A stretch of 63,571 bases of DNA, filler included, from Stramenopiles sp. TOSAG23-3 (Eukaryota): NCBI GenBank assembly GCA_900128585.1. It is 6 parts of 6 records of this genome, joined end to end, with 100 filler letters (N's around TTAATTAATTAA, not from the genome) between each part and the next. Parts side by side here need not be neighbours in the genome. Positions count along the whole stretch, not along the records: positions 24,771 to 37,039 come from LT642696.1; 5 more parts are not named here. The stretch is one strand, 5' to 3'. A model generated the notes under the pieces. That model was not told the origin of the DNA and ran no database searches. It was given only the letters and a program-made list of their open reading frames with translations. A program made the position numbers and the translations under genes. Each line of letters begins with the position of its first letter. Position 1 is the stretch's first letter. Of the stretch, positions 548 through 44,885 are shown piece after piece.

Positions 548-1810
548 ATGTCGTTCCGTGAACTGCGTAATTTCACGGAGATGATGCGTGCCCTGGGGTA
601 CCCAAGGCTGGTGTCCGTGGACAATTTTCGTAAGCCCCACTTCGCACTTGTGGCGGACATTTTGTACTGGATGGCAATACGGTACGATCCAAACGCCCAT
701 ATCCCAGACGATATCGATACGGAGAACGAACGGGTGAATTTTGTGATGAAGGTGGCCGAACTCTTTGCGACCAAAGCAGGGATCAAGCTGAAGACGAGAC
801 GGCTGTACGCCGCCGACGGGAAGGCCGTCAAGGAGCTCTTGAAGATTTCCACACTCTTGTACTCTGCTCTGCGATCGAACTCCTCGACGACGTCAAGTGC
901 CGAGGCCGAGGACCCCGCTGGGGCCCACGATATCCTGAACAGCAAAGTCACGAACCTGAAAGGGACCAGGGCCCTTGGGAGTGAAATTACGGAGAAAGGA
1001 GCCAACCTGTACGACCTCCTGCTCCAGGAGAAGAACCTGCGGGAGGCGAGGGACAAGGCGCTCACCCTGCTGAACTCCTTGTCCAACAACGACGACGCCA
1101 ACGCCCAGGTCAAGAAGAAGCTGAAGGAGCAGGTGAAGGTTGGCAACGACAACTTGCTCGCGCTGGAGAAACAGGTCAAGGACTTGGATTCGGACACGAA
1201 AAGTTTGGAGAGGAAAATAAAAAAGAGACGGAACGACCTGGAGCGGAACAAGAAGCGCTTGAAAAGCTTGCAAACGGTGCGCCCAGCGTTTATGGACGAG
1301 TACGAAAAGCTCGAGCGCGAGCTGCAGAGGATGTACGAGGTGTACCTCGAACGGTTCCGTAACTTGGACTACATGGAACACCAGTTGGACGAGTACAGTC
1401 TCATGGAGAGCAAGCATCTCATGGCGGGGCAAAAGGAGCAACAAGGGCGCAGAAGACGCTTCGTAGACCAGGAGCGAGATCTTATTTACGGCGAAGTCGG
1501 CCACGATGACGACTTCAACCGTCCGGTGGAACGGCCGTCGGCGGCCCCCGGGCGGCGGGAAGGTAGGCTCAGCAGGGAAGATTTTGACCAGGGGAGGATG
1601 CGCGCGAAAGGGTCGATTGCCGACGGCAGTGACTCCGAGAGCGAACCTAGCGGGTTGAGCGATTCCGACTCCCGGTCGATGAGTGGGTCGGACAGCATGA
1701 GCGCAAGCTCCAATTTGATCGACGACGATGACGATAGTGCCGACGGGTTTTCCGGATCGGACAACGATAAAGGTAGTTTTCGAAGCACCGAATCTGACGA
1801 CGACTTTTAG
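548..1810 (+). CDS. CLUAP1: Clusterin-associated protein 1 / intraflagellar transport protein IFT38
   Basis: N-terminus MSFRELRNFTEMMRALGYPRLVSVDNFRKPHF, then RLYAADGKAVKELLK, KRLKSLQTVRPAFMDEYEKLE and an acidic tail ending DDDF; all typical of CLUAP1. Confidence 0.95.
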   Translation: MSFRELRNFTEMMRALGYPRLVSVDNFRKPHFALVADILYWMAIRYDPNAHIPDDIDTENERVNFVMKVAELFATKAGIKLKTRRLYAADGKAVKELLKISTLLYSALRSNSSTTSSAEAEDPAGAHDILNSKVTNLKGTRALGSEITEKGANLYDLLLQEKNLREARDKALTLLNSLSNNDDANAQVKKKLKEQVKVGNDNLLALEKQVKDLDSDTKSLERKIKKRRNDLERNKKRLKSLQTVRPAFMDEYEKLERELQRMYEVYLERFRNLDYMEHQLDEYSLMESKHLMAGQKEQQGRRRRFVDQERDLIYGEVGHDDDFNRPVERPSAAPGRREGRLSREDFDQGRMRAKGSIADGSDSESEPSGLSDSDSRSMSGSDSMSASSNLIDDDDDSADGFSGSDNDKGSFRSTESDDDF

Positions 1811-1948
1811 GCCCGCGGTAGTATGGTATTTACGGGGTGCCAAAGACAAATGACTGTTCTCTCATGAGTAAGTTTACTTGATATTATTCGCATACACTAA
1901 ATTCTTATATATTCATTTTCCTCTCCATGGCCCACGGCCATGCCTTCT

Positions 1949-4900
1949 TTACGGCGTCTCAAGCTTCTCCTCCTCTTTGTGCTCGTCATCACTATCGTCC
2001 TCCTCCGAGTCGCTGCTGTCTTCGCCTGCCACCGACGCGTTCACGGCCGCTTTCCGGTTCTTGTACTTGCGGCATAGTTGAACCGCGTACAAGATGCACA
2101 AGGTACCCAAGATCGCGCAATTTTGTGCCATCTCGTACTCCATCGTCAGCATATCTGCGCTGGACATGTCCCACGGTGGTTTGTACGGGCATGTGCCGGC
2201 GTCTTCGACGCACATTCCGCCGGCCTCGCCCTGGCTCAAGAGCCACGCGAAACCCTTCACCGTCTGCTTTTCCAGCTGCTTCTCATCTTGTTTCCCCAGG
2301 ACGTTGCACGTTTCTTGGCGTGTGACCGTGTTGCCGTCGATGTCTTTGAAAATGCGCCTGCAGCGGCCAAAGTGCCAGATGTAATCTCCATCGGGCACCT
2401 TGTCTTTCATAAAGTACTTCAATGGCTTACCGGCGTCCGAGAGCGGAACATGACGGAATGCCCACGGTTTCCCATCGACAGCGTTTCCCCCTCTCTCAAC
2501 CCAGTGCTTGCACCACTTTGGCCCGTCTGGGTGATCCTCCCCGAGTACGTTCCCTTTGTCGTCCGTTAAGTTCCAGAACCACATCAAGCGGCCCCCGACC
2601 TCCCCGCCAAACAGCTTCTTCTTCTTCTCTCGGTCCTCGTCTGGGAGCATGTAGTAGTCCCTGGAGCGTTGGTTGATACGATCCGCGTCGGGTTTCCGCG
2701 CCTTCAGCCCGGCAGGAAGGTACCAGTAGCATGTCCCCCAAGTATTTTCCAGGACAATACCCCACATGCACATACCGTAGGCCAGCGTTATCATTGGGTC
2801 CGAGCGGCTCCATGTGAAAGCGATAAGGACTAAGGCGACGAACGAAAGCGAGACGTTGGCCCACCCCTGTACCACCCAGCTCCCTACGTACACGAACGGT
2901 TCGGGTATGGTGGCGACGATGAAATGCGCCATCATAAGAATGCAAATGAAGGAAATCAGCCCAATGTACAACGATATAGGGATGTGAAACAGCCAAAACT
3001 CGAGGGACGATACATATTTATTTTTGCGGTTTAGCTGCCGGTACATCCGCTTCCACTTGATCTCGCGCCGGATGGGGTCCAGGTGAGCGTTTGTCAGCTC
3101 GAACTGCACCTTTTCCTTGTCAATGTCGTCCTTCGCAATTTCCGTCACGACATACGGAAAAGCCCCACTGTACTTATACAACTTAATCAGCGACCATAGC
3201 AGGAGGAAAACTGCAATCGTGGACACCCAGAAGAAGCGGAACAAGAACGATATCATAAAGGCTATGTTGTAAAAACACGCGTACATGAAATTGTTCCCGA
3301 TGCCCGTGATCCACCGCCTGTAAGCGATCGTGGTCAGCTGCCAGCGGTGGAACTTAGGGATTCCGAGGTAGTTCCTCACCCCAGGAATTATGCTGAAGGG
3401 GTTGGGAAAGACCATCCATTGCGTGGTGGGCCCCCGGATCAGCAGCACCTGCCCCAGCTCCCGATCCCGTTCTTGGTGGTACGACGAGGAGGGTAGCAGA
3501 GACTCATGGGGAAGCATCTGCAGAAGCACCCATATCCCCAGCCACGCGTAGATAACGAAAAAAGCCTTGAAGGTCACGTTGTGGGGCATGATGGTTACGG
3601 ACGCCGAGTACTTGTTAATGTCACCTTTCGGGGCGTCGACGTCGCGGGCCACGAGTCCGCACGTCCGGTGGTTGATCGGCGGTGTGCCCGGGAACCCGAG
3701 CAGCTTGTACCCCCACGACGACGCCAACAAATTTACGAGGACCATCGCAAAGAACGTCACTGCGTTGCCGAACTGCATCGACACCGTGAGGATAACTGTC
3801 AACCGGGTCCGCCAGCGCGGCTTGTACAACAGCCGGACCATCATCGACCCCAGGCTCGTCACGGCGGCGCACGTGACGATCAAGGCCAGCATTGCGCTGT
3901 AGATCATAAGCCAAAAACTGGACCCTAGCTTGCTCTGCTCGTTCATCACGCCCATGGAGCGGTATTCGTTCCACTGTGCGGACGCAAGTGTCGTAAGGCA
4001 GTAAGCCACCGTAAGTCCGGCGGCGGTGTCACTTCGCGTAACCACTAAGTGCATTGCCAGAAAAAAAAACAGAAAGATCATCACGAGGGCCCACTCAAAC
4101 TGCCAGCCAAAGCCGTTCCACTCCGCCGCCTTCAACGCAGTGGCGCAAACGATGATGGTATTGAAGCTCACCCACATGATCATGATGGACAAGGGGGTCC
4201 AAACGAACCACCGCTCGCGATAAGAGACACGGCCGGTCGACCGCAGGCCGACTTCCAGGCGCCAGTACAGGATGGACAGGCTAAGGAGGACCGCGAAAAT
4301 GAGCGGCACCGCCAGGAAGAAAGCTTCATTCTGAAACGCCACCAAAAAACCACCCAGAAACACCTGGTGAAGGGCAAACAACACGTCAAAAATGCCAAGG
4401 ATGCCGGACCGTGACTTTATTTCCCCCGGCAGGCTGATGGTAAGAACGATCAGGGCGTCCAGGGCGATGTAGGATCCCCAACTCGACAGGCCCTTGGCCG
4501 ACGGGGTGACGTATGTCGGGTACTTCCTGATCAGGTACCCGCACGTCTGCCCGCCAATTTGCCCACTCCGGGCACCGACTACGGTTATCAGAAGCGTCAG
4601 GAACGCGGCGATGTTGATCATTTGAAAAACCGTCCCCATCCACTTTCGCACCAAGAACCGCCTGGTGTCGGTGTGCTTGGGGAACCAATTGTGGACGCGG
4701 ACGAACCGGTTCAAGACCACGCTAACGTGGGTGCCCTGCGTCGCGTTGCTCAGCCGAATCAAATAAGGGGACACTTCGTCCATCTCGTCTTCGGGGTGCA
4801 CCCCCAAAAACATCCCGACCGTGTGTATCACCGTCTTGACACTGTCAACGGGTAGCTGGTCCACGTATTGCTTCCGCTTTGTGTACAGCATGTCCAAATG

Positions 4901-6190
4901 GTTCTCGATGATGTCTGGGGGTTCGGCGCACACGTAGTATATGTGCTCCAAATTATCGTAGTTTGTTACCTTTCCGTTCGTGTCGAATATGTGCGCCCAC
5001 AGTTTGTCTATGTCCGCCATTCCACGGCACCGGTGCCCCCGCAACCACATGCAGGCGGCGTTCACGCTCTCGTGAGTGGCCCTGATCAGCCCGCGGCGGC
5101 TGAAGCTGGACGCCACGTCGTTGTACACTATTATGTCGAAGTAGACGCCCGCTTCGAGCTGTTCCACCAGCACCCGGCACAAGTCACGGACGACGAACCG
5201 CATTCGGTCTATCACCTCGTTTTGCTCGGTCGTGAACGTGGCGTCCATGATGTATGTGTTCGGGATGATGAACAGGACGCGCTTCCCTTGCACCCGGCCA
5301 AACAGGGTCGACCGGGGGTACCCGGACATGGCCGCCAGGTGCTGCGCCGCCCGGTCGTAAACTTGCTCCCCCTGGTCGTAGAAGAAGGCGAGGTCCAGGA
5401 TCAGCCACCGGTTTTCCGTGTCGAGCATATAGTCTAAAATCTTCACCATGATCGTGAACCGCACGTGCACGTCGCTGATGGACTTCAGCAACATGGCTAT
5501 TTCCCGGGCGGTAAACCCGGTGACGTTGTGACGCAGGAAGTCCAGCATGGAAATGATCCTGTCCGTGTCGCCCTCTTTCACCCACTTCATCACCAGGGTA
5601 AATGTCTGACTGTGGTTCATCACCTCGGCGTGCAGGGTGACCGCCTTGGCGACCGCTTCCACCTGATCGGTACTGAACCTGGACTTGTGAAGGGTGGCGT
5701 CGATCTCTTCTATTTGGCGGACGTTCTTCGACTTGAAATTCCGCACCGTCAACGGGGGCAAGGGTTGCCCGTCCACGATCGGGTTCTTGATGAACGCCAT
5801 GTCCAGTAGGAACTGTTTGACGTACGGGCGAACGAGCACGTCAAAGTGGTCCAGGATCGTGTACTTATCCTCCATCCCCATTATTCTCAGCAAAAATATT
5901 TCCAGTACGTCGATTTTGTCGTTCTCGCTATCGCACAGTTTTAGCAAGGAGATGAAATTGGGCAGGGTGAACAACTTGTGCACTACCAAACTTCGCATCA
6001 CGGACCGGGACCTTCTGCGCCCCTTGATTTTCCGCAGTGTGTTCCATATGTGTTTTGCCTCGTCTGGTCCAACCACGGAATGGTGTCGGTTCGTGTCCTG
6101 GTTCACTACATCCATTTCCGTCGCCCGGACCAGCTTGCTCCATATTTCGACATGCCGCCGCTCGCTCTCTATCTCACTCTTAGTCGCCAT
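1949..6190 (-). CDS. 1413-aa membrane protein: DUF4476-like helical repeats, degenerate VWA domain, two TspO/DUF1774-like multi-TM modules
   Basis: Long ORF. Repeated FT/FSxxQ...LL...D..N...IL motifs; VWA3-like STLFGRVQGKRVLFII...FDIIVY...IHTVGM...LSNATQG; two hydrophobic modules with PTYVTP/VTIMP and WTPLSIMIMW/FHIPISLYIG motifs. Confidence 0.6.
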   Translation of the reverse strand: MATKSEIESERRHVEIWSKLVRATEMDVVNQDTNRHHSVVGPDEAKHIWNTLRKIKGRRRSRSVMRSLVVHKLFTLPNFISLLKLCDSENDKIDVLEIFLLRIMGMEDKYTILDHFDVLVRPYVKQFLLDMAFIKNPIVDGQPLPPLTVRNFKSKNVRQIEEIDATLHKSRFSTDQVEAVAKAVTLHAEVMNHSQTFTLVMKWVKEGDTDRIISMLDFLRHNVTGFTAREIAMLLKSISDVHVRFTIMVKILDYMLDTENRWLILDLAFFYDQGEQVYDRAAQHLAAMSGYPRSTLFGRVQGKRVLFIIPNTYIMDATFTTEQNEVIDRMRFVVRDLCRVLVEQLEAGVYFDIIVYNDVASSFSRRGLIRATHESVNAACMWLRGHRCRGMADIDKLWAHIFDTNGKVTNYDNLEHIYYVCAEPPDIIENHLDMLYTKRKQYVDQLPVDSVKTVIHTVGMFLGVHPEDEMDEVSPYLIRLSNATQGTHVSVVLNRFVRVHNWFPKHTDTRRFLVRKWMGTVFQMINIAAFLTLLITVVGARSGQIGGQTCGYLIRKYPTYVTPSAKGLSSWGSYIALDALIVLTISLPGEIKSRSGILGIFDVLFALHQVFLGGFLVAFQNEAFFLAVPLIFAVLLSLSILYWRLEVGLRSTGRVSYRERWFVWTPLSIMIMWVSFNTIIVCATALKAAEWNGFGWQFEWALVMIFLFFFLAMHLVVTRSDTAAGLTVAYCLTTLASAQWNEYRSMGVMNEQSKLGSSFWLMIYSAMLALIVTCAAVTSLGSMMVRLLYKPRWRTRLTVILTVSMQFGNAVTFFAMVLVNLLASSWGYKLLGFPGTPPINHRTCGLVARDVDAPKGDINKYSASVTIMPHNVTFKAFFVIYAWLGIWVLLQMLPHESLLPSSSYHQERDRELGQVLLIRGPTTQWMVFPNPFSIIPGVRNYLGIPKFHRWQLTTIAYRRWITGIGNNFMYACFYNIAFMISFLFRFFWVSTIAVFLLLWSLIKLYKYSGAFPYVVTEIAKDDIDKEKVQFELTNAHLDPIRREIKWKRMYRQLNRKNKYVSSLEFWLFHIPISLYIGLISFICILMMAHFIVATIPEPFVYVGSWVVQGWANVSLSFVALVLIAFTWSRSDPMITLAYGMCMWGIVLENTWGTCYWYLPAGLKARKPDADRINQRSRDYYMLPDEDREKKKKLFGGEVGGRLMWFWNLTDDKGNVLGEDHPDGPKWCKHWVERGGNAVDGKPWAFRHVPLSDAGKPLKYFMKDKVPDGDYIWHFGRCRRIFKDIDGNTVTRQETCNVLGKQDEKQLEKQTVKGFAWLLSQGEAGGMCVEDAGTCPYKPPWDMSSADMLTMEYEMAQNCAILGTLCILYAVQLCRKYKNRKAAVNASVAGEDSSDSEEDDSDDEHKEEEKLETP

Positions 6191-6710
6191 GCTGAACGAG
6201 CGAGCACTCGGGGCGGGGAAGAGGGAGGTGGATTGAGCGGGCGATGTGTTAAATTTTTAGGCGGGGGTGGCCGAGAATGGGGACAAGACGGCGACCTTAG
6301 AAATAAAAATGCGTGATCTTTACGATCGGTGGGTGGATGAGTGGATGTGTGACCGAAACGAGTTGTTGTTATTGTGTTCGTTAGTGTGTTGGATGATGAT
6401 GATTATAGAAGAGTGTAATTTTAGTCCAGCGGTTATATTTTTATCATTATAATTATATTAATAATTATTAACCATTTTTTTCTCATTTTTTTTTCCAATC
6501 GTCGTTTCTCATGAAGTTGTTGTACTTGTATATGTATAAAGTATTCTAATTTTATAATTGTATGTTATATAATATATAACCTACAAGTGAATTTCCTATC
6601 TATTTTTTCCTTTTTTTTGTTGTTCTTGTAGTTGAACTGTATTGTATATATCCTATCACTTTTAACAAGGAATACAAATAGCATTGCGACAAAAAGAAAG
6701 AAAGGTGGAG

Positions 6711-6773
6711 GAAGGAAGGAAGGAAGGAAGGAAGGAAGGAAGGAATGAAGGCAGGAAGGAAGGAAGGAAGGAA
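6711..6773. repeat. (GAAG)n microsatellite
   Basis: Tandem GAAG units read directly. Confidence 0.9.
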
Positions 6774-7685
6774 GAAAAGGGGCCCTATGCTATTCTGTGG
6801 TATTTTTACTATCTGTAAAAGATTTCAGAAATCTTCAAAGGAAATTGATCATAAAATGCCTATGTGTTTATACAATAACAATACAATAAAACTAAAAACA
6901 ATATTGCTTTAATACATTTATCCAACGTATAAGTACACTCAAAGATCGTACTTTTTATCTTCTATTTTAATGTTAAACCTATATTATTTAAAAATGGAAG
7001 ACAAACCTAATCTTTAGAAACTTTCATATTACCTATATATCAATGGTAAAAACAAGGTCGTCGTAGTGAAATGGAGAGTTTTTTATCATCTTTCTTCTTC
7101 TTCTTCGGGTAAAACAAAAAAATATACCTACACGTTTATATAACGTTAACTCTTTATAAAATGATTCTCATTTTAATTTCAATTATACGTATTTAATATT
7201 TACATTTATAATGGGTTTAAATAACTTTAATTTGTAACTTACATTCATGGAGGAATGGACTCGTTTCTGAAGAAAAAAAGATTAAAAATAAAATGCTATT
7301 ATTATTTTGGTTTTGGTAGTATAAGTTTAAAAGGGAAATACAATGAAGCAAACAAGAAAAAATGAGAGTGTGCCCAGGGGGGGGGTAGTAAAAAGTAAGT
7401 TCAGAAGCAAGTATATGTACATATGTAGCATAGTCTATACTGACCAACGAGAGAAGCATGTGCAAAAGAAAGAAAGCCATTTACACTGGAATACAGATGT
7501 TCGATTTAAAGAGATACGAAGAATGGAAGGAAGGTTCGTTTGTAATTAGAACAGACATTTCAAACAGAGGTTCCTATCCCATTCCATTAATTTGGTGCGT
7601 TAAACCCCATTATTGGAGTGTATACGGTTTTGTGGTGCGTCCAATATTGTTTGAACAACAAGCAAACAGGACACCAACGTCCAGC

Positions 7686-8778
7686 ATGGCGGCATTTCGT
7701 GCGATCCCACCGAGGGATGCCCCGTCATCGACATTTCTCACGCTGCGTGTTGGCAAGGTTCCCCCGACGAACCCGCGAACTCCCCGTGCCGTGGTGCCCA
7801 ACCAGCAGGAGGAGAAAGCGACGACCGTGTCCAGCCCGAAAATGTCGAAGCGGTACAAGAAGTCCGCGCGGAAGGGCACGCCCTCAAAAAAGTCGTCCGG
7901 CGTAAAGCGCTCCTTGTCCAAGACCGAGAGGAAGAAAACCAGCGGCAGTAACGGCGAGGGGGGCGACAGGAAAAAGGCATCGTCGGGGGGGCGGCAGTGG
8001 ACCATGGTCAAGGGCAAGGACGGGCGGCTCCACAAGCGGCAGCGGAGGGAAAAGTGGACGGACGCGGAGCACGATGCGTTTATCGAAGGGATGAAGCTTT
8101 TCAAGCGGGACTGGGAGCTGATTGCAGAGCACGTCAAGACGAAGAACGCCGTGCAGGTCCGCACGCACGCATATAGTCACTTCAACCGGAGGGTCCGTGG
8201 CAACCTTCCCGGCGTAGTCACTGCGATAGTCACGCGCGTGTGGAACAATGACATCGACGCCATCCCGCGGGACCCCTTTGAGATCCTTCGGCAGAACGAG
8301 TCCCTCGCGTCCCGCATCACCCCCTCCGCCGCGGCCGAAATCGCGGCCAAGATGGCCCTGAACGGTGGGCCAACCAATGTCTCCAGGGGGGGGGGGCACC
8401 CCTAGAAGCGAAGCCATCAAGACGGCGGCCGCCAGGCAGAATAGTCCATCCCACACGTTTTTAAAGGCCGCGGAACAGCTCAAGCAGCAGCAAGAGGCTG
8501 GCGCGGCGAAGAAGGCGAAGCCCACCCCAGCCAAGCAAACGGGCCCACTGCCGATGCTCCTTGACAACCTCGAGAAGACCGCGCTGAACAAGGCCCGTCT
8601 TGTTCGGTCAAAAGAGTGGTGCCATTCCCCGGGCTTTCCGCCACACCCAGTTGTTCCAGCACCACAAAAAACCATCTCCATGTCTTACAAATTTCGTTAC
8701 GCAAGTTCCCCCGTGCCGATATCGTTGTACGAGGGGACCGGGACGTACCCAGGCCCACCCTCACCCCTTAAAATATAA
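7686..8778 (+). CDS. Single-repeat Myb/SANT (SHAQKYF-class) transcription factor; apparent frameshift at G11 8386-8396
   Basis: REKWTDAEHDAFIEGMKLFKRDWELIAEHVKTKNAVQVRTHAYSHF is a Myb repeat. ATG at 7686 lies at the AT-to-GC transition. Coding-like GC-rich sequence continues in the +1 frame (ORF 8365-8778). Confidence 0.8.
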
Positions 8779-9679
8779 AACAAAACAAAACAACAACAAA
8801 ATGCGCACGCCTGAAGGATCCCCACGGCTTTTAGAACGCTCTCTAATTGGCAACCAGACTGGTGCGTATGCATGCAAATGCAGAATGCATTAAATTATTT
8901 AAAAATTAAATGAATTTATCTTTTCAACGAAACTGAAGAAAAGAAGTAGAAGGAACAACAACTTCGTTGTCATTCATATCATTCCTAATTTCTAATAGAA
9001 ACCAAAGAAGGTCACGGAATAGATAGTGTTTTACTCTTCTAGATTTATTATATTATGGTATAGGTATCGATTCCGTATTCTATACCAGTTCTATATGTAT
9101 ACAATATATTTATATTATTTTTATAATTCTGTCCTTTTTTGCCTTCTTTCTTCTTCTTCTCTTTCTTATTTTTCTTCTCTGTCTTCTTCTTCTTTCTTTT
9201 TGTTTTGTTTCATTTTGTTTTTTGTGTTTGTTTGTTGTGTTTTTTTTGATAATAATATTTATTATAATATATAGGTTTATTATTATTTATTATAGGTTTA
9301 TTAATATTATTAATATTGTTGATTCATTTTTTTTTGCATCTCTTTCTTCTTTTCTTCTTTTCTTCTCGTCTTCTTCTTATTATTCTTCTTCTTCTTCTTT
9401 TTTTAAAAATATATTACTTTTTTTTTATTATTATATTAATATAATACCTTGGTAATATAAAAATATTATAGATGGTATTGAAAAGTGTGTACAATTCATC
9501 GCATGATACCAATCTACTTTCTCTATGTTCAGTATCAATCCTTTTCTACTCCGTTGAATTGCATTTGTTCGCATATACATTCATACACGCCCAACTAATT
9601 CGTTGATTAGAGCGTACAACATAGAAGGAGGCCCTCCGTCCATCCAAGAAGAAAACACCACCACCAACAGTGAACTGCG

Positions 9680-10732
9680 ATGGCGGCACTGACGGAAAGG
9701 GAAGCCGCGGTGTATGACCGTCAAATACGACTATGGGGTGTGGAGGCGCAGAAACGATTGCAGAACTCGCGGGTTTTAATATGTGGGTTCAAAGGGTTGG
9801 GGGCGGAAGTCGCGAAGAATCTGTCGCTTGCTGGGTTCAGCATTAGTGTCCTAGACGCGGAGCAGGTCCAACCCGTCGACCTGGGGGCAAACTTCTTCCT
9901 CTCGTCGGACGATGTGGGGAAGAACCGGGCGGAGGCAGCGCTGCCAAGGCTGAAGGAGCTGAATCCGTTGGTGCAGATGGAGGCGCTGAGCTTAACTATC
10001 GCCCAGGTAACGGAGGCCGTGGTCCAACGGTTCAACTGCGTCCTGATCACTTCGAACGTCCCGATGGAGGAGCAGATACGCATCAACGAACTCTGCCGGA
10101 AGCACGGGGTGAACTTCTTTGCAGGGTCGACGTACGGCGGCGTGGGGGTCTTCTTCGCCGATCTTGGCGCGTCGTACACTTGCACCGTAAAACAGACGCA
10201 TCAAGAGCACGTCAGGGAAATCGAGCAAAGTGGGAGCGTGGAGACTGTGGAACAGGCTCTTGCAGAGCCGAAAATGCTCACAAAGACGCTGGCATTTCCA
10301 GACCTGAAAACGAGCAATTCGACGCCGTGGAAGGACCTGATGAACCGCCGGTTCGGGACGCCCTCCTTGTACTTTGGGGTCCAGATACTGTACCGGTTTC
10401 AAAAGGTCGTTGGGCGCCCCGCGGACTCGACGAAGGACGAGGACTGGAAGACTCTTTGCTATCTTGCGACCGACATGGCCGTGGAGCAGGGCGAAGCGGA
10501 CGCTGGGGCGTTTGTCTCGGAGCGCGTCCTCGACATGCTCTGGCGGACCATTGGCGCCGAGCTGAGCCCCGTCTGCGCCGTCCTTGGCGGTATTGTTGGT
10601 CAGGAAATTGTTAAAGTGATTGCTCGAAAAGGGGAGCCGCTGTGGGAATCGAAGGGTGGGAACTGGATATTTTTGGATACGATGGGCCAGACGGACCAGA
10701 AGGGAGGGGCCGTCGTAAAGTCTATCCCATGA
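9680..10732 (+). CDS. SAE1: SUMO-activating enzyme subunit 1 (Aos1)
   Basis: EAAVYDRQIRLWGVEAQKRL, GLGAEVAKNLSLAG, ELNPLV, ELSPVCAVLGGIVGQEIVK; 350 aa. Confidence 0.92.
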   Translation: MAALTEREAAVYDRQIRLWGVEAQKRLQNSRVLICGFKGLGAEVAKNLSLAGFSISVLDAEQVQPVDLGANFFLSSDDVGKNRAEAALPRLKELNPLVQMEALSLTIAQVTEAVVQRFNCVLITSNVPMEEQIRINELCRKHGVNFFAGSTYGGVGVFFADLGASYTCTVKQTHQEHVREIEQSGSVETVEQALAEPKMLTKTLAFPDLKTSNSTPWKDLMNRRFGTPSLYFGVQILYRFQKVVGRPADSTKDEDWKTLCYLATDMAVEQGEADAGAFVSERVLDMLWRTIGAELSPVCAVLGGIVGQEIVKVIARKGEPLWESKGGNWIFLDTMGQTDQKGGAVVKSIP

Positions 10733-10845
10733 CGATGTGAGTGTAGCCGGATATATTTTCCTGTTGGTGTGTGGTAAGCTTTAAATTTATCTCAATATAT
10801 AAACAAGTTTTAAGCGACAAGAAGTGAATTTGTAAATTTAATTTT

Positions 10846-11040
10846 TAAAACAAAAATTGGCTCGCGCTGCTATTTAAATAATTAAAATTTAGCTTTCTCA
10901 TGTACCTGTAAATTTAATTAATAATTGATACAAGAGTGTATTAAAAAAAAATTATAATAGTAGTATTATAATTTGTTTTTTTTTAGGTACGACGAAGCTA
11001 AATTTAATTACTTAAATAACAGCCAATTTTCTTGTTTTTA
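10846..11040. repeat. Imperfect inverted repeat of about 60 bp (MITE-like or hairpin); member of a dispersed family
   Basis: 10846-10907 is close to the reverse complement of 10985-11040. The 25 nt at 11006-11030 are identical to 59944-59968. Confidence 0.7.
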
Positions 11041-11256
11041 GACTTCTAGTTTGGTGCAAGTGCCCGGATTTCCATCTGATCGTCTATTATGGGCAATACA
11101 CAGTAAAGGCCGACGTGTACACGAGCTGATTTAAAACTTATTTCTTCGAGGTATACTATTAGATCTTTTCTTTTTTTTATAGGGGGTTCCGTTTTTTCCC
11201 CGCCACGTTTTTTTCTCTGCATTTTCTCAATTCCCGCGGCGGGAATTGAGTTAAAC

Positions 11257-11958
11257 CTACATTTTCAAGGCGTCCTCTTCGGGGTTGATTTGGTTGACCC
11301 CCTGGACTTCCGGGATATAATACATTAGCATCCTTTCCACCCCATTCTTCAGGGTAACGGATGAGCTCGGGCACCCCGTGCACGACCCGGCAAGTTGCAA
11401 GTTAACGATCCCCGATTCTTCGTCGAAACCTTTGAAGAGGATGTCCCCGCCATCGTCTTGGACGGAAGGGCGGATTCGGGTCTCGAGCAACTCCTTGATC
11501 ATCGCGACGATCTCGTCGTCGTCGTCCGTAATTGCCGTGTCGCTGGGGGCCGGCGCGTCCGACATCACTTCGTACCCATCTTCGGAAAAAAAGTCCATCA
11601 CTTCCGCAAACACCTGGGGCTTCACCACCGCCCACGATACGGCCGCTTCGTCAATGTTGACCGAAATAAACTCCTTCCCAAAGAACACAGTGTTCACCCC
11701 TTCTATACGAAACAGCTGCTTTGCCAACGGGGACGAGTGCGCCGTCATTGCACTCTCAAAGTTCACCCCAGAACCGTACTCTTCGTCCAGGACCGGTACT
11801 CCCGGCAAAAATTTCAGACTAGATGGGTTTGGCGTCTCCTCAACGTTTATGAACATTGTCCGAACGGTCTGTTGGAACAACGACGTCGCGGCCTTCCTGC
11901 TTCGAAAGGACGCACCCTGGCGTCCGGCGGCGGCACTCCACAACGCTCTGCTCAGCAT
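11257..11958 (-). CDS. NFU1: Mitochondrial Fe-S cluster carrier NFU1
   Basis: Transit-like MLSRALW... followed by MFINVEETPNPSSLKFLPG and IRPSVQDDGGD...GSCTGCPSSSVTLKNGVE (CxxC). Confidence 0.95.
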   Translation of the reverse strand: MLSRALWSAAAGRQGASFRSRKAATSLFQQTVRTMFINVEETPNPSSLKFLPGVPVLDEEYGSGVNFESAMTAHSSPLAKQLFRIEGVNTVFFGKEFISVNIDEAAVSWAVVKPQVFAEVMDFFSEDGYEVMSDAPAPSDTAITDDDDEIVAMIKELLETRIRPSVQDDGGDILFKGFDEESGIVNLQLAGSCTGCPSSSVTLKNGVERMLMYYIPEVQGVNQINPEEDALKM

Positions 11959-12214
11959 GATAATCAACAAACTACCTTTCCACAAACAAACAAAAAGTAA
12001 ACGAATAAACAAGAAGCAAATATGTTCAAAATGTTCGTGCCTGTCGCTCTGTTTACGTATAATCCCACACCCTGGCACACACACATATATATAAATATAT
12101 TGTATTGTTCATCAAGTAGGTAACAAAAGGTCGAGTGTCAATATATTATTATGGTAAGAGAGAGACTAAATATTATACTCCTCCTCTCTCTCTTCTTCTT
12201 GGTGGAGGAGGAGG

Positions 12215-12293
12215 AGAAGAAGAAAGAAGAAGAAAGAAGAAGAAGAAGAAGAAGAAGAAGAAGAAGAAGAAGAAGAAGAAGAAGAAGAAGAAG
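12215..12293. repeat. (GAA)n microsatellite at contig end
   Basis: Tandem GAA units running into the gap. Confidence 0.9.
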
Positions 12294-32698: not shown

Positions 32699-35600
32699 AT
32701 GGCGGCAATAGAAGTCCGCCGCGCAGAACTAGACGACCAGGAAGGTATCGTTTCCTTGGTTAACGCGACTCCGGGTGGCCGAGGGCGTCTGGAAGACCGT
32801 TTTGGAGAGTTTGTAATCTCCGAGCTAATTTATTCTTCGTACTTATCGATTACTGCGACAGATGATCAAGGGGCGGTGATAGGGTTCGCTGCCTTTTCAG
32901 CGACACCAACTGTCGTGCCGCACGTCGAGGACGTCGAGGCTTGGCTGTCGTGGGTTTCCTCTGGGGACGGGAACACGCTCAACTCCAATGTATCCAACAC
33001 GTTATGGCTGCGTTTTTGCGTCGCGGTGGAAGGCTCAGAGGCGGACGCGATGACGAACATTCTGAGGACAGCATTCTCCACCCTTCCTGAGGTCGACATG
33101 GCAGCGTACACGCTGCCCCTGGCGATCGGTGCCTTCCCGGACGTCACCACCTTCGAGCAGAGGCAGCTCCCGGATCCCCCCGCGGAGGCCGTTGGGGAAG
33201 ATGTTGACTTTGACGATATTCCAGCGGAGTACGCGTGCAAACTATTGGTTAGCGGACGAGACAAGTACATCCCGCCACTCTTTGTTAGGGACGCACTCGT
33301 GGAAGACTACGACGATCTCGTGGCAGTGTTTGAAACCCATAGTAAGTCTTTGAAAGAACAGTACGGTGAGTTTTTCTTGGCCGAGCTGATTGAATCGCAG
33401 GACGAACGGAACAAGGCGATCGTCGGCCAAGTAGATGGCCGCGCGGTTGGCCTCATGAGCCTTACGTGCGAGGTCGACTTGACGGCCCTGCAACAGTGTT
33501 TTGAGCTGCAACCCTACAACAACCTGGAAACGGGCATATCGGAGGAGCAGCTGAAAGCCTACAACGATGCACTCGCAGCGAAAGCGGCGGAAGAGGCTAG
33601 GCTGGTTGCGCTGGAGAAGAAAAACCGCGCCCTGGCGGGTATGGGCCCGCGCGTTCTGGTGTTGGGCTTGCCTGGATCTGGAAAAACAGAACTGGCGAAG
33701 GCGTTGGTTGGGGAGAAAGAGCTCGTTCACGTCAACTTCGAATCCTTCAAAAAGGATATTCCCGAAGGCGCCGACGAGCTGGCGGCCGTTATCGAACGGC
33801 TTTTCCAGGAAGACTGCCAAACGAGTGGTTGGGCTCTCGAAGGGTTTCCCCGCAACCCGGTTGAATTGGAAGGTATGAGCAACGCAGGTTTTGTGCCAAA
33901 AAAATGCCTCTCGCTTGCTGTCGCAGAAGAGATTGCGATGGGGCGTGTGATGGACCGCCGCGTTGACCCAGAGACTGGGGACCTGTACAATTTGTCGTCC
34001 AACCCTCCCACCGAGCCAGAAGTGGAAGAAAGGTTGCAAATGATCAACGAGGATGATACCGAGGACGGCTTCAAAGCCAAAGTTGCAATTGCACAACCGG
34101 CAATCACTGCGATCGTTGAATCGTTGGAAAATGTTTGCCCAGTCGAAGAGATAATAGCTGCAGACAGCACGGAAGACATGGCAAAGGCTAGCGTTAAATT
34201 TATTGATCGCCCCCAAACGAGGCCCCCGTCGGCGACGGGAAGCCAAGAAGGCAGCGAAGGCAACGCCCAGGAGGAGGCTGTGGTCGACAACCGTTCCATT
34301 GAGGAACGGCTTGGTATTGTAGATATTTTGGGCATCGACCCAGACGAGGTTAAACCGGCCGCGTTTGCAGTGACGCTGTTCTGTTTGGACGACCTCTACG
34401 AATCTCGCGCCCGTGAATTTCTTCGAAAAGCGTTCATGATGTTTCCAGAGCGGGAATATTGCGTTGTAACCCTCCCTCACACTTCGGCAGAATCGGCGCT
34501 GCTTTCTAATTTTACCATGGTGTCGCCTCGCCCAACGTCTACGTTTTCGCACGTGCTCTACTTGCTTCACCGCGACGGTCTGCTAGCGTCCGAAGTCCGC
34601 GTATCGAGGGCGTTGGAGACCCACCTTGGCCAACTTGAGCCCATGCTGGCAGCATTGCCCAACGGGAGCGAAGTGGCCGAGGCGGTGGTCGCAGCATTGG
34701 ACAAATCGAGCACGCCGCTGGCCAAAAACCCTCAGATGGCGGCCTTCGTTGCCACCTGCCGAGAGCAAGTCTTGGGGGTGATCGTGCTCACACGAAAAGG
34801 GTGCGACCAATCTGGGGTACGCTGGATGAAGAGCGGGTACCGCTTAGAAGACTATGTCGTGTACTCCCAGCACGATCACGTTGAGCAGGCGCACATCACG
34901 CATTACGTGATAAACCCAATATTTTCTAGGTGCACACGGTTCGTTCTCCGCGAAACGATGCGTTTGTACAACAAAACGTGCCTGTACTATCGTGTGTATC
35001 CCGGCCAAATCATTGCTCCGCTGCTTCCGGACATGGTCCAAGCCCCACCTCGCAACAGGCCAATGCTGCGCGCAAATGAAGTCCGAGGACAGGCTGCCCC
35101 AGGCGACGAAAACGAAATGACACGAAAAAGTGGGCCCCACCCAGAGGACGTGGCAGAATCAAAAGGCGAAGACAGTTTCTCTCTTCACTTCTTGACCCAC
35201 AAGCTGCTTAGTGAGCCAAAAATCGTGTCGCACGCAAGAATAGTTGTTGTTGGAGCCTCCGATTGTGGCTTATCTGCTTTGGAATCACTGATCCTCATGC
35301 CTTACATGCAATTTACGCGTTTGACGCTGATTGCACCAGGGGACATTCCAGCCCTGCAAGATTCCCAAAACCCAAAGAATTTCATTGCCAACGTTGCTGG
35401 GGGGCCCACCGGGTACAACAAGAGGGAAACTCAGCAGTTGAGCTTCGGCAGCCTTGTTCGCGTGATTGATAACCGCGTGGTAGACATTGACCGTGAAGGT
35501 TCGGCCGTGCAACTGGAAGATGGTTCGATCGTTCCCTACGACTTCTTGCTGATCTGCACGGGGCTGCAAGAAAGCACGAAGAGCAAACTGATGCAAAACA

Positions 35601-36967
35601 CCACATCGGAGAGCGACGACCCAAGGCTTCACTTCATTGACTCGCTGGCGTCCGCGACCAGATTGGGGAGTAACATTGAATCGTTGATGGCTGGCGCTGG
35701 GTTTCAAAAGGTGGCCGTTTACGGCAACTCCCTCAACTCGTACGCCGCTATCCAAGGCCTACTAGCGCACAACATCCCAGCAACAAGCATTCGGCTGTTT
35801 CTCCCGACCGCGGCTGACGATAATGGTCACGCCCCGTTTGCCGATGTTTTCGTGCGCGACAAAGTGATGGCCACGCTGGGGGAGCTAGGGGTCGAAATTT
35901 CTCGTGGGAGTGTGCTTGAAGATGTTCTGGCAGATGCGGACGGTAACTTGTGTGGTGGGGTGTTTAACACCAGTGGGGAAAAGGACGAAGCTGAATTTCA
36001 AGTGCTTGTGTGCTGTGCAAAGGTTGACGTTGACCAAGATGTATTTGCAGCAATCAACGAAAGTGGACTGGTCTATGACGGGCGCCTCGTTGTCGATGGC
36101 CGTTTCCGCACCGCTGACCCAGCCATTTATGCGGCAGGAACGCTTACCAAGCACAGCCGTCGGTTTGGTAGAAACCGTCGCTGCCACGACGAGTACAACT
36201 CGAGAGAAGTTGGACAGGCGTTGGCAAAAGCGTTGGTGGAAGAAGTTGACCCTCTTGCGTTCCCAGTGCCCGTCAATGAAAATACCGGAGAAGCAATCCC
36301 ACCCAATTTTTCCAACCCGATCGGCGTTACGGCGTGCTTGCCCGGGGAAATGTACTACACCCATATCAAATGCCCCCCAATTATTGGCTCGGGCAGCAAC
36401 GAACCCCCTTTCGAGTTCGGCAGAGAGTGTGTGACCAATCCCAAAGATGCGCTTGCAAAAGTAGGGGGTGGGCGTGGAATCGGACTTCGGTACTGCCGTG
36501 TGGTTCTTGATGTCCACCGCCGTGTCGCATCCATTACATATTTAGGAGCCCAGCCCATAGAAGATCGTAACCTGGCCGGCCTCGTGGGCCTCCAAGAGTC
36601 TTACTTGAATTCATTAGAACATTTTTATGACAAAGGAACCATTCCCGACCTGGTGAAATTTCTTCGGAGCGATTGGGCTGTCGCTGTTTACCACGATAGA
36701 TTCCGCGCCCTCTGCCAAGTTCTCTCGGAGAAGCTGGATGGCGTCGAAGAAGTGCAGAAGTTGTTGAAAGAGGTCAAGGACGCAATCTCCTCAGGGAACA
36801 CAAAGTTGAGCGAGTCCAATTTGTTGCGAAAGAGCCTTATCGGCACAGGGGGCGAAAAAATGTCTTACAAAACGAAGAAAAGCATTGAAACTGAGTTGCT
36901 AAGATTCCTTCGTGACAACAGGGCCCTCCTACCGTTTTTCTGTATGCCTGACGGTAGCAATGAGTAA
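32699..36967 (+). CDS. CFAP61: Cilia- and flagella-associated protein 61 with an inserted adenylate-kinase-like domain
   Basis: CFAP61 motifs VRDALVEDYDDL...YGEFFLAELIESQ, FPEREYCVVTLPH and RIVVVGASDCGLSALE, plus LVYDGRLVVD in the FAD/NAD-binding fold. AK motifs GLPGSGKT, GWALEGFPRN and RRVDPETG. Confidence 0.9.
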   Translation: MAAIEVRRAELDDQEGIVSLVNATPGGRGRLEDRFGEFVISELIYSSYLSITATDDQGAVIGFAAFSATPTVVPHVEDVEAWLSWVSSGDGNTLNSNVSNTLWLRFCVAVEGSEADAMTNILRTAFSTLPEVDMAAYTLPLAIGAFPDVTTFEQRQLPDPPAEAVGEDVDFDDIPAEYACKLLVSGRDKYIPPLFVRDALVEDYDDLVAVFETHSKSLKEQYGEFFLAELIESQDERNKAIVGQVDGRAVGLMSLTCEVDLTALQQCFELQPYNNLETGISEEQLKAYNDALAAKAAEEARLVALEKKNRALAGMGPRVLVLGLPGSGKTELAKALVGEKELVHVNFESFKKDIPEGADELAAVIERLFQEDCQTSGWALEGFPRNPVELEGMSNAGFVPKKCLSLAVAEEIAMGRVMDRRVDPETGDLYNLSSNPPTEPEVEERLQMINEDDTEDGFKAKVAIAQPAITAIVESLENVCPVEEIIAADSTEDMAKASVKFIDRPQTRPPSATGSQEGSEGNAQEEAVVDNRSIEERLGIVDILGIDPDEVKPAAFAVTLFCLDDLYESRAREFLRKAFMMFPEREYCVVTLPHTSAESALLSNFTMVSPRPTSTFSHVLYLLHRDGLLASEVRVSRALETHLGQLEPMLAALPNGSEVAEAVVAALDKSSTPLAKNPQMAAFVATCREQVLGVIVLTRKGCDQSGVRWMKSGYRLEDYVVYSQHDHVEQAHITHYVINPIFSRCTRFVLRETMRLYNKTCLYYRVYPGQIIAPLLPDMVQAPPRNRPMLRANEVRGQAAPGDENEMTRKSGPHPEDVAESKGEDSFSLHFLTHKLLSEPKIVSHARIVVVGASDCGLSALESLILMPYMQFTRLTLIAPGDIPALQDSQNPKNFIANVAGGPTGYNKRETQQLSFGSLVRVIDNRVVDIDREGSAVQLEDGSIVPYDFLLICTGLQESTKSKLMQNTTSESDDPRLHFIDSLASATRLGSNIESLMAGAGFQKVAVYGNSLNSYAAIQGLLAHNIPATSIRLFLPTAADDNGHAPFADVFVRDKVMATLGELGVEISRGSVLEDVLADADGNLCGGVFNTSGEKDEAEFQVLVCCAKVDVDQDVFAAINESGLVYDGRLVVDGRFRTADPAIYAAGTLTKHSRRFGRNRRCHDEYNSREVGQALAKALVEEVDPLAFPVPVNENTGEAIPPNFSNPIGVTACLPGEMYYTHIKCPPIIGSGSNEPPFEFGRECVTNPKDALAKVGGGRGIGLRYCRVVLDVHRRVASITYLGAQPIEDRNLAGLVGLQESYLNSLEHFYDKGTIPDLVKFLRSDWAVAVYHDRFRALCQVLSEKLDGVEEVQKLLKEVKDAISSGNTKLSESNLLRKSLIGTGGEKMSYKTKKSIETELLRFLRDNRALLPFFCMPDGSNE

Positions 36968-41732: not shown

Positions 41733-44309
41733 TTAAGGTGTTGCTGGCTCGTCTCCACGGCGCCAGGTGTCCCCAAGGACGGCGGGCGTCGTCACCAGCC
41801 GGTGATTCTCTGGCTTCTTGTTCCTTGCTGTATAGTACAAAAACTCCACCCAGTCGTTTACGACATTCTCGTTCTCAAACATCCTCCCAGGGACCCGCCG
41901 CACCAGCTCGTCGCTGATTTGTTGCCGGTAAGCCGGGTCCACCCCGAACCGCACGACCTTGTCGACGTACCCGTCGAGGGTGTGGGCGACGCAGCACGAT
42001 TCGTTGATCCCCAATTCACGCACGTAACCCTTTTCGATGCGCATGGTCATTCCGAGCGATAGACCCTCGTACACTACAAACGGGGTGCCGACGGACAGCG
42101 CTTCCATCACCGTCACGCCGCTGGCCGACGGGAAGGTGAACATAATCACCGCACCGAGCTTCAAAAATGCTAAATAACGATCCAGGTGCATTTGGTTCAC
42201 CCAAACAATTCTATCCACCACGCTGTCGGGCATCGATCGCCGGAACCGTTCCGTCAAAAAAACTCTTGAGGAGTCTAGCTTCCCCTTCACCAGGATCAGC
42301 AAACCGTGCGGGTCCTTCGTGAGAACCTTTCGTATTGCTTCGTCCATGAACGGATTCAGCTTGTACAAGGACGTTGGAATCATGTAAAGGTGCGGCTTCA
42401 CGCCGTCGCCAAAGTACCCCATCGGTATTCCAAAATCGTGCCCCTCCAAGTTCGGCGCGGGCAAGATGGGGGGCAAAAAATAGGTGCAAATGCTGGGCAT
42501 CAAGTACAAACGTTCGGTATAGTGCGCCTGCGCCTCCTGCGTCTCCATCTTCGCCGAGGAGACGAAGTAGTCCATCTCCGGCAATCCAGTCGTGATTCCG
42601 TGTCCCCAAAACACCACTTGGCGGTGCGCCAGGCGCGAAAACCCAGTCAAATACACGCTGCTTGCCATCCCAATCTCCCCAAACACCAATACGTCCAGGT
42701 TCAGCTGGCCAATGGTTTCCCGCAACACCGTGTAGCTGTCGGTGTCGATGCGAACAAAGCGGTCCGCGCTTTCCTCGATTTCGGTAGTAAACGAGTCTTC
42801 GTTAATGCTTGGCACGATGGCAACCACCTCAAACACAGGAAGCTTCGCCAGTTCCCGAATTACCCCTCGCAGAAGTTTCCCCACCGAATGCTCCCGAAAG
42901 AACGACGAGAAAAATCCCACTCGCAGCTTGTTGCCTGGCGACAGGTCTGGCCGGTTCAGGAATCGGTTGAACAGGACGTCTTCCCCCTTCGCCGCGGCAA
43001 TGTGGGGGGCCGTATACTCCAAGTACGGCGCGGAGAGCCGCAAGACCTCCGCCATTTGTGCCCGGGACACGTGCTCGTGAAACCCGAGTGACACGAAGTG
43101 AAAACCGAGGTCCGTGAACGCTTCCTCTGGTTTCGCGATGAACAGCTGGCCCTTCCTAGCCCGCTGGAGCAGGCTTTCCAGCTGCCCAAAAAACCGAAAC
43201 TTCATTCGCACGATGTCCTCCGCAGATTTGTAGAGCGGCGGTATGAACGTGCTCCACTTTATCCTCGCAGCATTGGCCCGCGCCTTGTCATTGCTCGCCG
43301 CGGCCGCGCGCTCCGCCCGTTTAAGCATGTCCACCGCGCCTTCCAAGTCGTTCTCGGCGACCAGTTTGTTGCCCAAGGAATCCAGGGCGGGGACCATGTT
43401 CGGGTCTATCGCAATTGCTTTCTGCCACATTTCCATCGCCAGCGATCGGTTCCCATTTTCTACCTTGTCGATCGCCGAGCCCACGTTGTTGTACAACCCA
43501 GCCTTCAGCTGCAGCGAATCGGGGTCTGTTTTGGTTTCTAAGAGGTCCAGTATCTCCATTTGCGCAGTGATGGACCCCTCCCTGTTGCCGAGGTGCCCCA
43601 GCAGCAGCGCGTAGTTAACGCTGGCTTTTAGGTTCCCGGCGCTGATGGCCTGCTTGTAGTGCGCCACGGCTTCGTCCAACCTGCCAATCTCGGCCAGCAG
43701 CAGCGCAACGTCGTTCCGGACCCCGTCGTCCTCCGGTCGCGCGTCCAGGTAGAGCATGTACTGCTCTGCTGCACGGGCGCTGACTTCTGTCAACGCCTCC
43801 GGGTAAACCCCTTTGGCCTTTGAATCGGGGTGAACGTAATACTGCAAAAGCTTCCCGTACTCCAAGTGAGCGTACGGGTCCGCGGCGACTCCTTCCTTTT
43901 TTCCCAGGGAGATGGCGCTTCGCATGTGCTCCTCCGCCAACGAAATTTCCCCAAACATCCTCGCAGTTTGTCCGGCAAGAGTGTGGAATACTGGCCGGTT
44001 CGGTTCAATCGTTATAGCGTGCGAAACGCTGGCGTAGGCGTCTTGGAACCGCTCGCTCTCTTTGTAGGTGTGGGCCAGTATATTCCAAGCGTCCGCGCTC
44101 TGCGGTTCGCCCTGAATAATTTGTCCAAGAATAGACTCTGCCGTACCATATTCTTTCTTGTAGAAGGCATCGAGGGCAAGCTTGAGCGCGGCCTCAACCG
44201 AAAACTGCCCCCCGCCCGCTCCAACCTCTCCCTCCGATAGCGTCTGCGGCAGCGCGCAAAGCAGCCCGAGAAGGCAGAAGGCAGAGCACAGAACGCCCTG
44301 CCCCCTCAT
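41733..44309 (-). CDS. TPR-containing GT41 glycosyltransferase (OGT/SPINDLY/HMW1C family) with signal peptide
   Basis: TPR repeats; RVGFFSSFFREHSVGK, WGHGITTGLPEMDYFVS, YTERL, SLYKLNP, FP...TVMEALSVGTP; hydrophobic N-terminal leader. Confidence 0.85.
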   Translation of the reverse strand: MRGQGVLCSAFCLLGLLCALPQTLSEGEVGAGGGQFSVEAALKLALDAFYKKEYGTAESILGQIIQGEPQSADAWNILAHTYKESERFQDAYASVSHAITIEPNRPVFHTLAGQTARMFGEISLAEEHMRSAISLGKKEGVAADPYAHLEYGKLLQYYVHPDSKAKGVYPEALTEVSARAAEQYMLYLDARPEDDGVRNDVALLLAEIGRLDEAVAHYKQAISAGNLKASVNYALLLGHLGNREGSITAQMEILDLLETKTDPDSLQLKAGLYNNVGSAIDKVENGNRSLAMEMWQKAIAIDPNMVPALDSLGNKLVAENDLEGAVDMLKRAERAAAASNDKARANAARIKWSTFIPPLYKSAEDIVRMKFRFFGQLESLLQRARKGQLFIAKPEEAFTDLGFHFVSLGFHEHVSRAQMAEVLRLSAPYLEYTAPHIAAAKGEDVLFNRFLNRPDLSPGNKLRVGFFSSFFREHSVGKLLRGVIRELAKLPVFEVVAIVPSINEDSFTTEIEESADRFVRIDTDSYTVLRETIGQLNLDVLVFGEIGMASSVYLTGFSRLAHRQVVFWGHGITTGLPEMDYFVSSAKMETQEAQAHYTERLYLMPSICTYFLPPILPAPNLEGHDFGIPMGYFGDGVKPHLYMIPTSLYKLNPFMDEAIRKVLTKDPHGLLILVKGKLDSSRVFLTERFRRSMPDSVVDRIVWVNQMHLDRYLAFLKLGAVIMFTFPSASGVTVMEALSVGTPFVVYEGLSLGMTMRIEKGYVRELGINESCCVAHTLDGYVDKVVRFGVDPAYRQQISDELVRRVPGRMFENENVVNDWVEFLYYTARNKKPENHRLVTTPAVLGDTWRRGDEPATP

Positions 44310-44885
44310 TGTATACCGGAACGGGGAGAACGGCTACTACTACGACTACGACACGCCCGTGTGCAACGAAATTGGCAGTTCGATCGTGTTCAAAAATAAC
44401 ATTAACCAAGGCTGCTATAGCGTAATCATAATTTCACAGCCTACTTATCAATTATATTAGGAAAGTCTATGAATGAAATTTATTTTTATATCATAACATT
44501 TCAATATGTAAACTGTACCATTATCTCAATCCACCAATGAACAAGAAGAAAGGAATTAAAAAAGTATGAGAAGATTATTATTGATTCGTCGTCCACCAAA
44601 ACAACAATAGTCTCTCTTAATTTAAATAATAATAAAATACCAAAAAAAAAAATATAAATCATTTTTTGATCTGTAAGTATTCTTTATTCCCTATCTAAAA
44701 TATTTATACTAAAATATACTTCAAACAAAAATCTTCATCGTCCTCCCGTTCCTCCCGCCGTCCTCCCACCATCCACAACAAGAAGAAGAAAAAAAGGTGG
44801 AAGGACTACTATATAATAATAGTGGTCTTATATTAATAATAATAATAAAAAAAGATTTTATTTTGGTGCATTTTCTTCTTCACAC

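Follow-up and report, generated by a model that had tools for sequence, protein, structure and literature searches.

CFAP61 is a base protein of radial spoke 3 (RS3), and the head of this spoke carries the adenylate kinases (AKs) AK7 and AK9; knockout of FAP61 in Tetrahymena halved the AK activity of salt-extracted axonemes, according to a preprint (bioRxiv 10.1101/2025.05.19.654877). Four AKs were reported to co-precipitate with FAP251 (PMC4395127). AK8 was assigned to the necks of the spokes RS1 and RS2, and it was proposed that AKs are held near the dyneins by their tethering to spokes (PMC11779644; PMC12399478). AK domains are also found within CPC1/SPEF2 and FAP42, which are axonemal scaffolds of the central pair (PMC9113940). 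Because it is established for these two proteins, the principle of an AK inside an axonemal scaffold is not new. Ciliate FAP61 contains ~400 extra helical residues, and the published FAP61 alignment includes no stramenopile, as judged from the legend of its Fig. S1 (PMC4395127). In our own reading, the ciliate insert lies in the same loop as the AK insert described here.

The DNA analyzed here (the window; 63,571 nucleotides including filler) is from Stramenopiles sp. TOSAG23-3 (assembly GCA_900128585.1, here G000). The window joins several contigs, of which G000:C709 provides positions 1–12293, and the AK insert corresponds to G000:C711:8871-9446. An 866-aa open reading frame (ORF) with a hydrophobic N-terminus and TPR-like repeats is located at 41733–44333 (minus strand); its C-terminal region presumably resembles O-GlcNAc transferase-like proteins.

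The CFAP61 gene occupies positions 32699–36967 of the plus strand, as do all its features given below. It is a single intronless ORF of 1422 aa plus stop, with one uninterrupted frame and no internal stop codon. Three Pfam domains were matched above their cut-offs and in canonical order: CFAP61_N (32714..33526, aa 6–276, E 1.6e-57), a pyridine nucleotide-disulphide oxidoreductase-like domain (Pyr_redox_2; 35237..36148, aa 847–1150, E 1.3e-11), and the CFAP61 dimerisation domain (CFAP61_dimer; 36302..36685, aa 1202–1329, E 1.1e-23). The same three domains in the same order make up the RS3 base protein CFAP61, also known as FAP61 or CaM-IP3 (C20orf26). The five best PDB sequence matches of the whole protein were all CFAP61 chains, with the human chain at E 7e-132. 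CFAP61_N represents the first of two N-terminal repeats; the second was located at 34349..35098 (aa 551–800) by profile match and structure alignment. Because the profile of aa 551–800 also matches aa 80–303 (125 bits), the 192-aa in-frame AK insert is sited between two homologous repeats. An earlier reading of the sequence without database searches (the sequence-only reading) had placed the insert between two halves of the CFAP61 N-terminal region. More precisely, the CFAP61_N model itself is not split, as the insert comes after it. The human, bovine, mouse, and Chlamydomonas CFAP61 chains match both sides of the insertion site. Unlike the window's protein, they have a loop of ~95–120 aa with no AK match inside it, in agreement with the sequence-only reading, in which canonical CFAP61 was not known to have an AK domain.

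The insert (33641..34216, aa 315–506) is a degenerate AK domain of the short-lid AK8/plastid-like type, as indicated by Pfam, PDB matches, AlphaFold, and structure alignment. It contains the motifs GLPGSGKT, GWALEGFPRN, RRVDPETGDLYNL, and MINEDD, exactly as quoted in the sequence-only reading. It is preceded by a long helix that connects it to the first repeat (33542..33637, aa 282–313, AlphaFold secondary structure), and followed by a flexible linker (34217..34297, aa 507–533) with pLDDT below 50 at residues 511–525. When searched alone against Pfam, the insert matched ADK (E 4.1e-6, 27.4 bits, cut-off 26.8 bits) and AAA_17 (E 5.7e-7), with no match to ADK_lid. Of the three Pfam families named for a check in the sequence-only reading, CFAP61_N and ADK were thus recovered, but ADK_lid was not. 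The best PDB sequence matches of the insert were bovine AK8 (E 2.4e-32), 37ap, and maize 1zak (E 8e-18), with FAP42 also among the matches. The AlphaFold model of aa 1–814 was built from a 71-sequence alignment, as an earlier 7-sequence model was poor outside the AK domain. Its mean pLDDT was 90, with 87–95 per 10-residue block of the insert. Residues 316–507 of the model were aligned with AK crystal structures (Z ~23, rmsd 2.6, 190 residues), and the remainder of the model with mouse RS3 CFAP61 (9d2f_J; Z 27.9, rmsd 3.1, 493 residues). Therefore, the AK forms a domain of its own, connected through the long helix and the flexible linker, and the CFAP61 scaffold is predicted to keep its known fold around it. 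With its P-loop NMP-kinase core and its NMP-binding and lid subdomains, the modeled insert shows the fold by which the adenylate kinase family is recognized. Matches from the ESM Atlas were all below 0.9 and were taken as leads only. The Pfam score, the AK8 match, and the predicted fold confirm the original claim of an AK domain fused in frame to CFAP61.

The catalytic basic residues of E. coli AK are K13, R36, R88, R123, R156, and R167, and kcat was reported to fall from 330 to 0.3–2.4 per s on replacement of any of the five arginines in the active site (PMC11313852). The window's AK was aligned to E. coli AK residues 61–162 for residue assignment. At the sites of K13, R36, D84, R88, R123, R156, and R167 it has K, K, E, R, R, N, and K, so that only three of the six catalytic basic residues (K13, R88, and R123 equivalents) are kept. 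The labels T31, L58, V59, Q92, R119, R124, D158, and D159 are given in a numbering that we presume to be correct for the AK domain. The P-loop (33665..33688, aa 323–330) has a lysine that is invariant in all five close relatives, as are the R88 and R119 equivalents. The AMP-binding lid (33728..33796) is shortened, with the equivalents of T31/G32/D33/R36 and L58–V59 lost. The distance from the P-loop to GFP is 59 aa, compared to 79 aa in the intact fused AKs, which corresponds to a deletion of ~20 residues from the AMP lid and bears out the shortened NMP-binding subdomain noted earlier. In the EGFPR motif (33839..33853), the R88 equivalent is kept and the Mg-positioning D84 is replaced with Glu; two of the five close relatives have Asp here. 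The ATP lid (33944..34057, aa 416–453), delimited by alignment to E. coli AK, retains the R119, R123, and R124 equivalents. The R156 equivalent is Asn, and the R167 equivalent, just beyond this lid, is Lys.

The window's copy therefore has neither the complete AMP-binding lid nor the full set of catalytic basic residues that mark an active AK. Because ~20 AMP-lid residues and three of the six catalytic basic residues are missing, this domain is very probably a pseudo-enzyme, and AK catalysis by it is very unlikely; the suspicion of the sequence-only reading that the domain might be inactive is thus supported. Binding at the ATP site is possible. Among the five close relatives, invariant columns make up 24% of the insert compared to 45%–77% of the scaffold domains. 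The likely state of the domain in the window's lineage is a folded pseudo-enzyme heading to loss.

The distribution of the fusion was investigated by a phmmer search of 1.84 billion representatives. Among the best 150 of 2094 matches, an AK at the same CFAP61 site was found in Lagenidium, Saprolegnia, Plasmopara, Phytophthora infestans, Globisporangium, and an Albugo cluster. Removal of 40 near-duplicate cluster members from 179 junction-spanning CFAP61s left 139 proteins, 109 of which had linkers long enough to be scored with a profile for which 87 free AK domains were the only input. Linkers with at least 15 bits numbered 26 of 109, and eight exceeded 250 bits, compared to null maxima of 5.6 bits (1090 shuffles) and 2.9 bits (109 reversed linkers). 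The scores form a graded decay series. The last search was seeded with an intact fusion and yielded 57 new proteins, 40 of which were CFAP61. All 40 contained an AK in the loop, and in 39 of them at least one domain had K13, R36, D84, R88, R123, R156, and R167 all present. Many species of Phytophthora, Pythium, and Aphanomyces were represented, mostly with 2–4 AK domains. CFAP61 of two Triparma species contained one intact AK domain, and that of Tribonema a decayed one. Because the search queries contained an AK, these numbers overestimate the frequency of the fusion in stramenopiles. No AK-bearing CFAP61 appeared outside stramenopiles in these searches, although AK-containing queries would favour fusions from any lineage. 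The fusion is thus not specific to the source organism of the window but a widespread and probably ancestral stramenopile feature, of which the window's copy is a decayed member.

Several further CFAP61 loops and AK fusions were recorded. In P0007, P0008, and P0009, which form the sister clade of the window's CFAP61, an acidic Ala/Glu/Thr-rich low-complexity linker of 155–175 aa with no AK signal is found in place of the AK. The linkers of P0135, P0145, P0192, P0208, and P0217 show faint remnants at the GW...GFPR position, with profile scores at or near noise (0.8–7.5 bits or no match); these are possibly the last traces of the AK insert. In P0075, P0241, and P0282 (Lagenidium and Globisporangium), an N-terminal module consisting of a repeat, two AKs, and part of the next repeat is duplicated before a complete CFAP61, which results in four AK domains. 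This could be a real duplication or the product of merged gene models. The same AK type is fused to LrgA/LrgB-like domains in P0119. Further partners, which we take from their Pfam accession numbers to be nucleoside-diphosphate kinase domains (P0330 and P0332–P0334) and ankyrin repeats (P0326 and P0327), were also seen. Judged by these architectures, the short-lid AK type appears to be a promiscuous module.

We consider it likely that an AK was fused early to CFAP61, that it is active at the RS3 base where intact, and that it became a pseudo-enzyme in the window's lineage. A short-lid AK8/plastid-like AK gene would have been inserted once, early, into the length-variable CFAP61 loop between the N-terminal repeats. 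At the base of RS3, close to the inner-arm dyneins, the intact copies (oomycetes, Triparma, and several flagellates) would convert 2 ADP to ATP and AMP; in oomycete CFAP61 the AK domain is tandemly multiplied. Recycling of ADP to ATP at the RS3 base is the most likely activity of the intact fusion, given its residues, and orthology suggests that stramenopile CFAP61 sits there. In animals and ciliates, ATP is recycled by the separate spoke proteins AK7, AK8, and AK9, a job that the stramenopile fusion would do covalently. The window's domain still has the predicted AK fold, appears to be transcribed, and keeps its P-loop, but it has lost the AMP site and the lid arginines and evolves faster than the scaffold; it would now probably be a passive appendage or a docking surface. 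In the sister clade of the window's lineage, the AK was replaced by the acidic linker.

In the main rival reading, which was the idea of the sequence-only reading, the window's domain would be an ATP/ADP sensor that binds nucleotide at the ATP site without phosphate transfer, and the aa 282–313 helix would relay the nucleotide state to the base of RS3 and to dyneins close by. The equivalents of GxPGxGK, FPR (R88), and R119 are invariant in all five relatives, in inserts that are 38%–75% identical to the query, and this conservation exceeds what a pure relic needs. The losses are mainly on the AMP side and in the catalytic arginines of the lid, and the fold is confidently predicted, all of which would suit a sensor. 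However, the R123 equivalent and the lid DD are each kept in only three of the five close relatives, the P-loop lysine is gone in the other decayed copies P0010 and P0090, and the domain is entirely lost in the sister clade and in pelagophytes. This pattern looks more like decay that occurred repeatedly than like a single function newly conserved. A sensor is therefore unlikely, and the same holds for the broader proposal that an ATP-regenerating enzyme at the RS3 base was made into a non-catalytic ATP/ADP sensor for inner-arm dyneins in the window's lineage.

The origin of the fusion was investigated with a careful IQ-TREE analysis (LG+G4) of the CFAP61 core, from which the insert was excluded; 36 of 105 rows were selected for it, with 970 columns. 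All 15 AK-bearing rows were found inside one 23-row clade (support 99/98), and none of the 13 rows outside it carried an AK. This clade, which we infer to be the stramenopiles, also contains oomycetes, two pelagophytes without the insert (P0019 and P0094), and the MAST-labelled P0099, the source name of which we read as MAST-3. The window's CFAP61 grouped with P0004 and P0005 (100/100), with P0007 as sister. A quick tree of 58 rows agreed with the clade of AK-bearers (support 97). In a 105-row FastTree, more than 10 bits were scored by 24 of 40 rows inside the clade and one of 65 outside, at a node support of 0.44. The outlier, P0096, is a weak AK-bearer on a long branch and was placed inside the clade by IQ-TREE. 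The confinement of AK-bearing CFAP61s to one clade argues for a single gain in early stramenopiles. The simplest reading is one early gain, after which the domain repeatedly decayed or was lost and, in oomycetes, was duplicated in tandem; by these trees, the fusion probably arose once, early in stramenopiles.

Several independent entries of AKs into a permissive loop across stramenopile lineages were also considered. The loop is a hot spot for insertions (its length ranges from 0 to >1100 aa, including the ciliate-specific helical stretch reported in PMC4395127), the short-lid AK type is joined to many other proteins, and the fused domains were not one clade in the AK-domain-only trees (6 and 5 changes), where the decayed ones joined other long branches. 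With these long branches, the trees single out no AK donor. The intact fused domains grouped with tandem AKs of other protists and not with rows that were labelled AK8-like by length and motifs. A single origin was nevertheless not rejected (AU p 0.31), the position of the AK is constant just before the second repeat, and all carriers are in one clade, with none found in other eukaryotes despite searches that favoured them. We therefore consider repeated entry improbable.

A kinase that is still active, on AMP or some other small acceptor bound at a remodelled site, would fit the full AK fold, the P-loop, the acidic residue at the D84 position, and the R88 and R123 equivalents; moreover, two of the substitutions (R to K) are conservative. 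In the five close relatives, however, the R36, R156, and R167 equivalents are never arginine, 17–26 AMP-lid residues are deleted, and the remodelled region has no conserved replacement motif. The probability that the domain is active in this way is small, and loss of catalysis remains the preferred reading for the window's lineage.

The authenticity of the fusion was verified in sequencing runs and independent assemblies. Among the 24 runs listed, which cover 12 studies, 20 contain the stretch, with three rows that may be the source of this DNA. Junction coverage was checked in four runs from four other studies, and no joints were seen in these. DNA run X5 spans both AK junctions (records 32726–33733 and 33725–35429), RNA run X16 spans the 5' junction (33370–33713), and three RNA contigs extend beyond the AK end into the linker. 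RNA libraries can hold DNA, and the sole control here was the first upstream bin, which had DNA depth without RNA depth. The same architecture was found in independent assemblies (P0003–P0006 at 82%, 59%, 57%, and 56% identity) and in the relative P0287, labelled as a complete MMETSP transcript ORF; a precomputed ADK annotation was present in 6 of 18 matches of the relatives search. Although the assembly is fragmented (7088 contigs) and no single RNA contig of the runs examined extends from the AK into the second repeat, where two X15 records overlap by 20 bases, an assembly chimera, frameshift, or gene-model artefact can be dismissed, given the single open frame, the DNA and RNA contigs over the junctions, the independent assemblies, and P0287. 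The continuity of reads and transcripts that the sequence-only reading had proposed to check was thus confirmed by DNA at both junctions and by RNA at the 5' junction.

Two further sources of the insert were rejected. A recent foreign insert would be expected to show a compositional break, and none was found (GC 0.53 in the insert compared to 0.52–0.57 in the rest of the gene). A recent copy of an AK from the same genome was excluded, as all four AK loci detected in G000 are only distantly similar to the insert (best identity 29%).

Searches of G000 with AK8-like, multi-AK, AK9, Dpy-30, and AAA_17 queries returned no AK8 or AK9 orthologue, which in this fragmented assembly is a lower bound. 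CFAP91 was also not found, and both Pfam-based searches missed the AK insert itself. The lack of matches for AK8, AK9, and CFAP91 could reflect either an incomplete assembly or a reduced RS3. A second degenerate short-lid AK was observed in a 1095-aa ORF (L023:834-4121, minus strand, G000:C829), where it is followed by IQ motifs and EF-hands. The AMP lid of this AK is of intact length, and its R36 and R167 equivalents are lost. It is possibly a calmodulin- or calcium-linked pseudo-AK.

The intact forms suggest an ATP-recycling enzyme attached to the radial spoke base, and the fusion adds a lineage-wide architecture to the view that RS3 is a metabolic hub. An AK is thereby predicted near the inner-arm dyneins at the base of the spoke, whereas in solved mammalian spokes AKs are located at the neck and head. 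CFAP61s with one to four intact domains, decayed domains, and clean losses provide a natural series in which to ask whether ATP regeneration at this place matters for long-lasting swimming. The window's own copy belongs to the decayed, less informative end of this series. If the sensor reading were true, the series would begin with an enzyme, pass through a sensor, and end in loss, all at a single defined site of the axoneme.

The sequence-only reading had allowed that the insert might be a well-documented feature of stramenopile CFAP61. The fusion is indeed common in databases, but no description of it was found in the full-text literature searched, which mostly lacked subscription papers. 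The main text of Morris 2009 on oomycete domain fusions (PMC2705460) does not contain the term adenylate kinase, though its supplements could list the pair. The stramenopile CFAP61-AK fusion is thus apparently undescribed. The oomycete and Triparma fusions have no annotation other than "adenylate kinase," "hypothetical," or "CFAP61 N-terminal domain-containing," which suggests that many stramenopile "adenylate kinases" are in fact CFAP61. In a P. infestans flagellar survey, FAP61 (PITG_18373) and an adenylate kinase (PITG_18377) are given as separate genes, and PITG_18379 as a zoospore-high AK (PMC3471859). Their close gene numbers suggest that the three may be pieces of one locus, and in the newer P. 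infestans models P0081 and P0294 CFAP61 and AK are in one protein.

Compared to known systems, the fusion resembles AK7, AK8, and AK9 in that radial spokes bear AK domains by which ATP is regenerated locally, and some AK9 domains also appear blocked or held open, as described in bioRxiv 10.1101/2025.05.19.654877 and PMC11779644. In contrast to the fusion, which is covalent in the RS3 base scaffold, AK7, AK8, and AK9 are separate polypeptides docked by RIIa or DPY30 helices at the neck or head. AK8 is a free protein with two tandem AK domains behind RIIa; the window's single domain inside CFAP61 is therefore not an AK8 orthologue. CPC1 and FAP42 belong to the C1b projection, whereas the fusion with CFAP61 involves another scaffold, on the side of the doublets, and was found only in stramenopiles. 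The closest counterparts are the CFAP61-AK proteins of oomycetes and Triparma in the databases, which have the same architecture and insertion site as the window's protein but contain one to four AK domains, in which the catalytic residues are nearly always complete, instead of one decayed domain.
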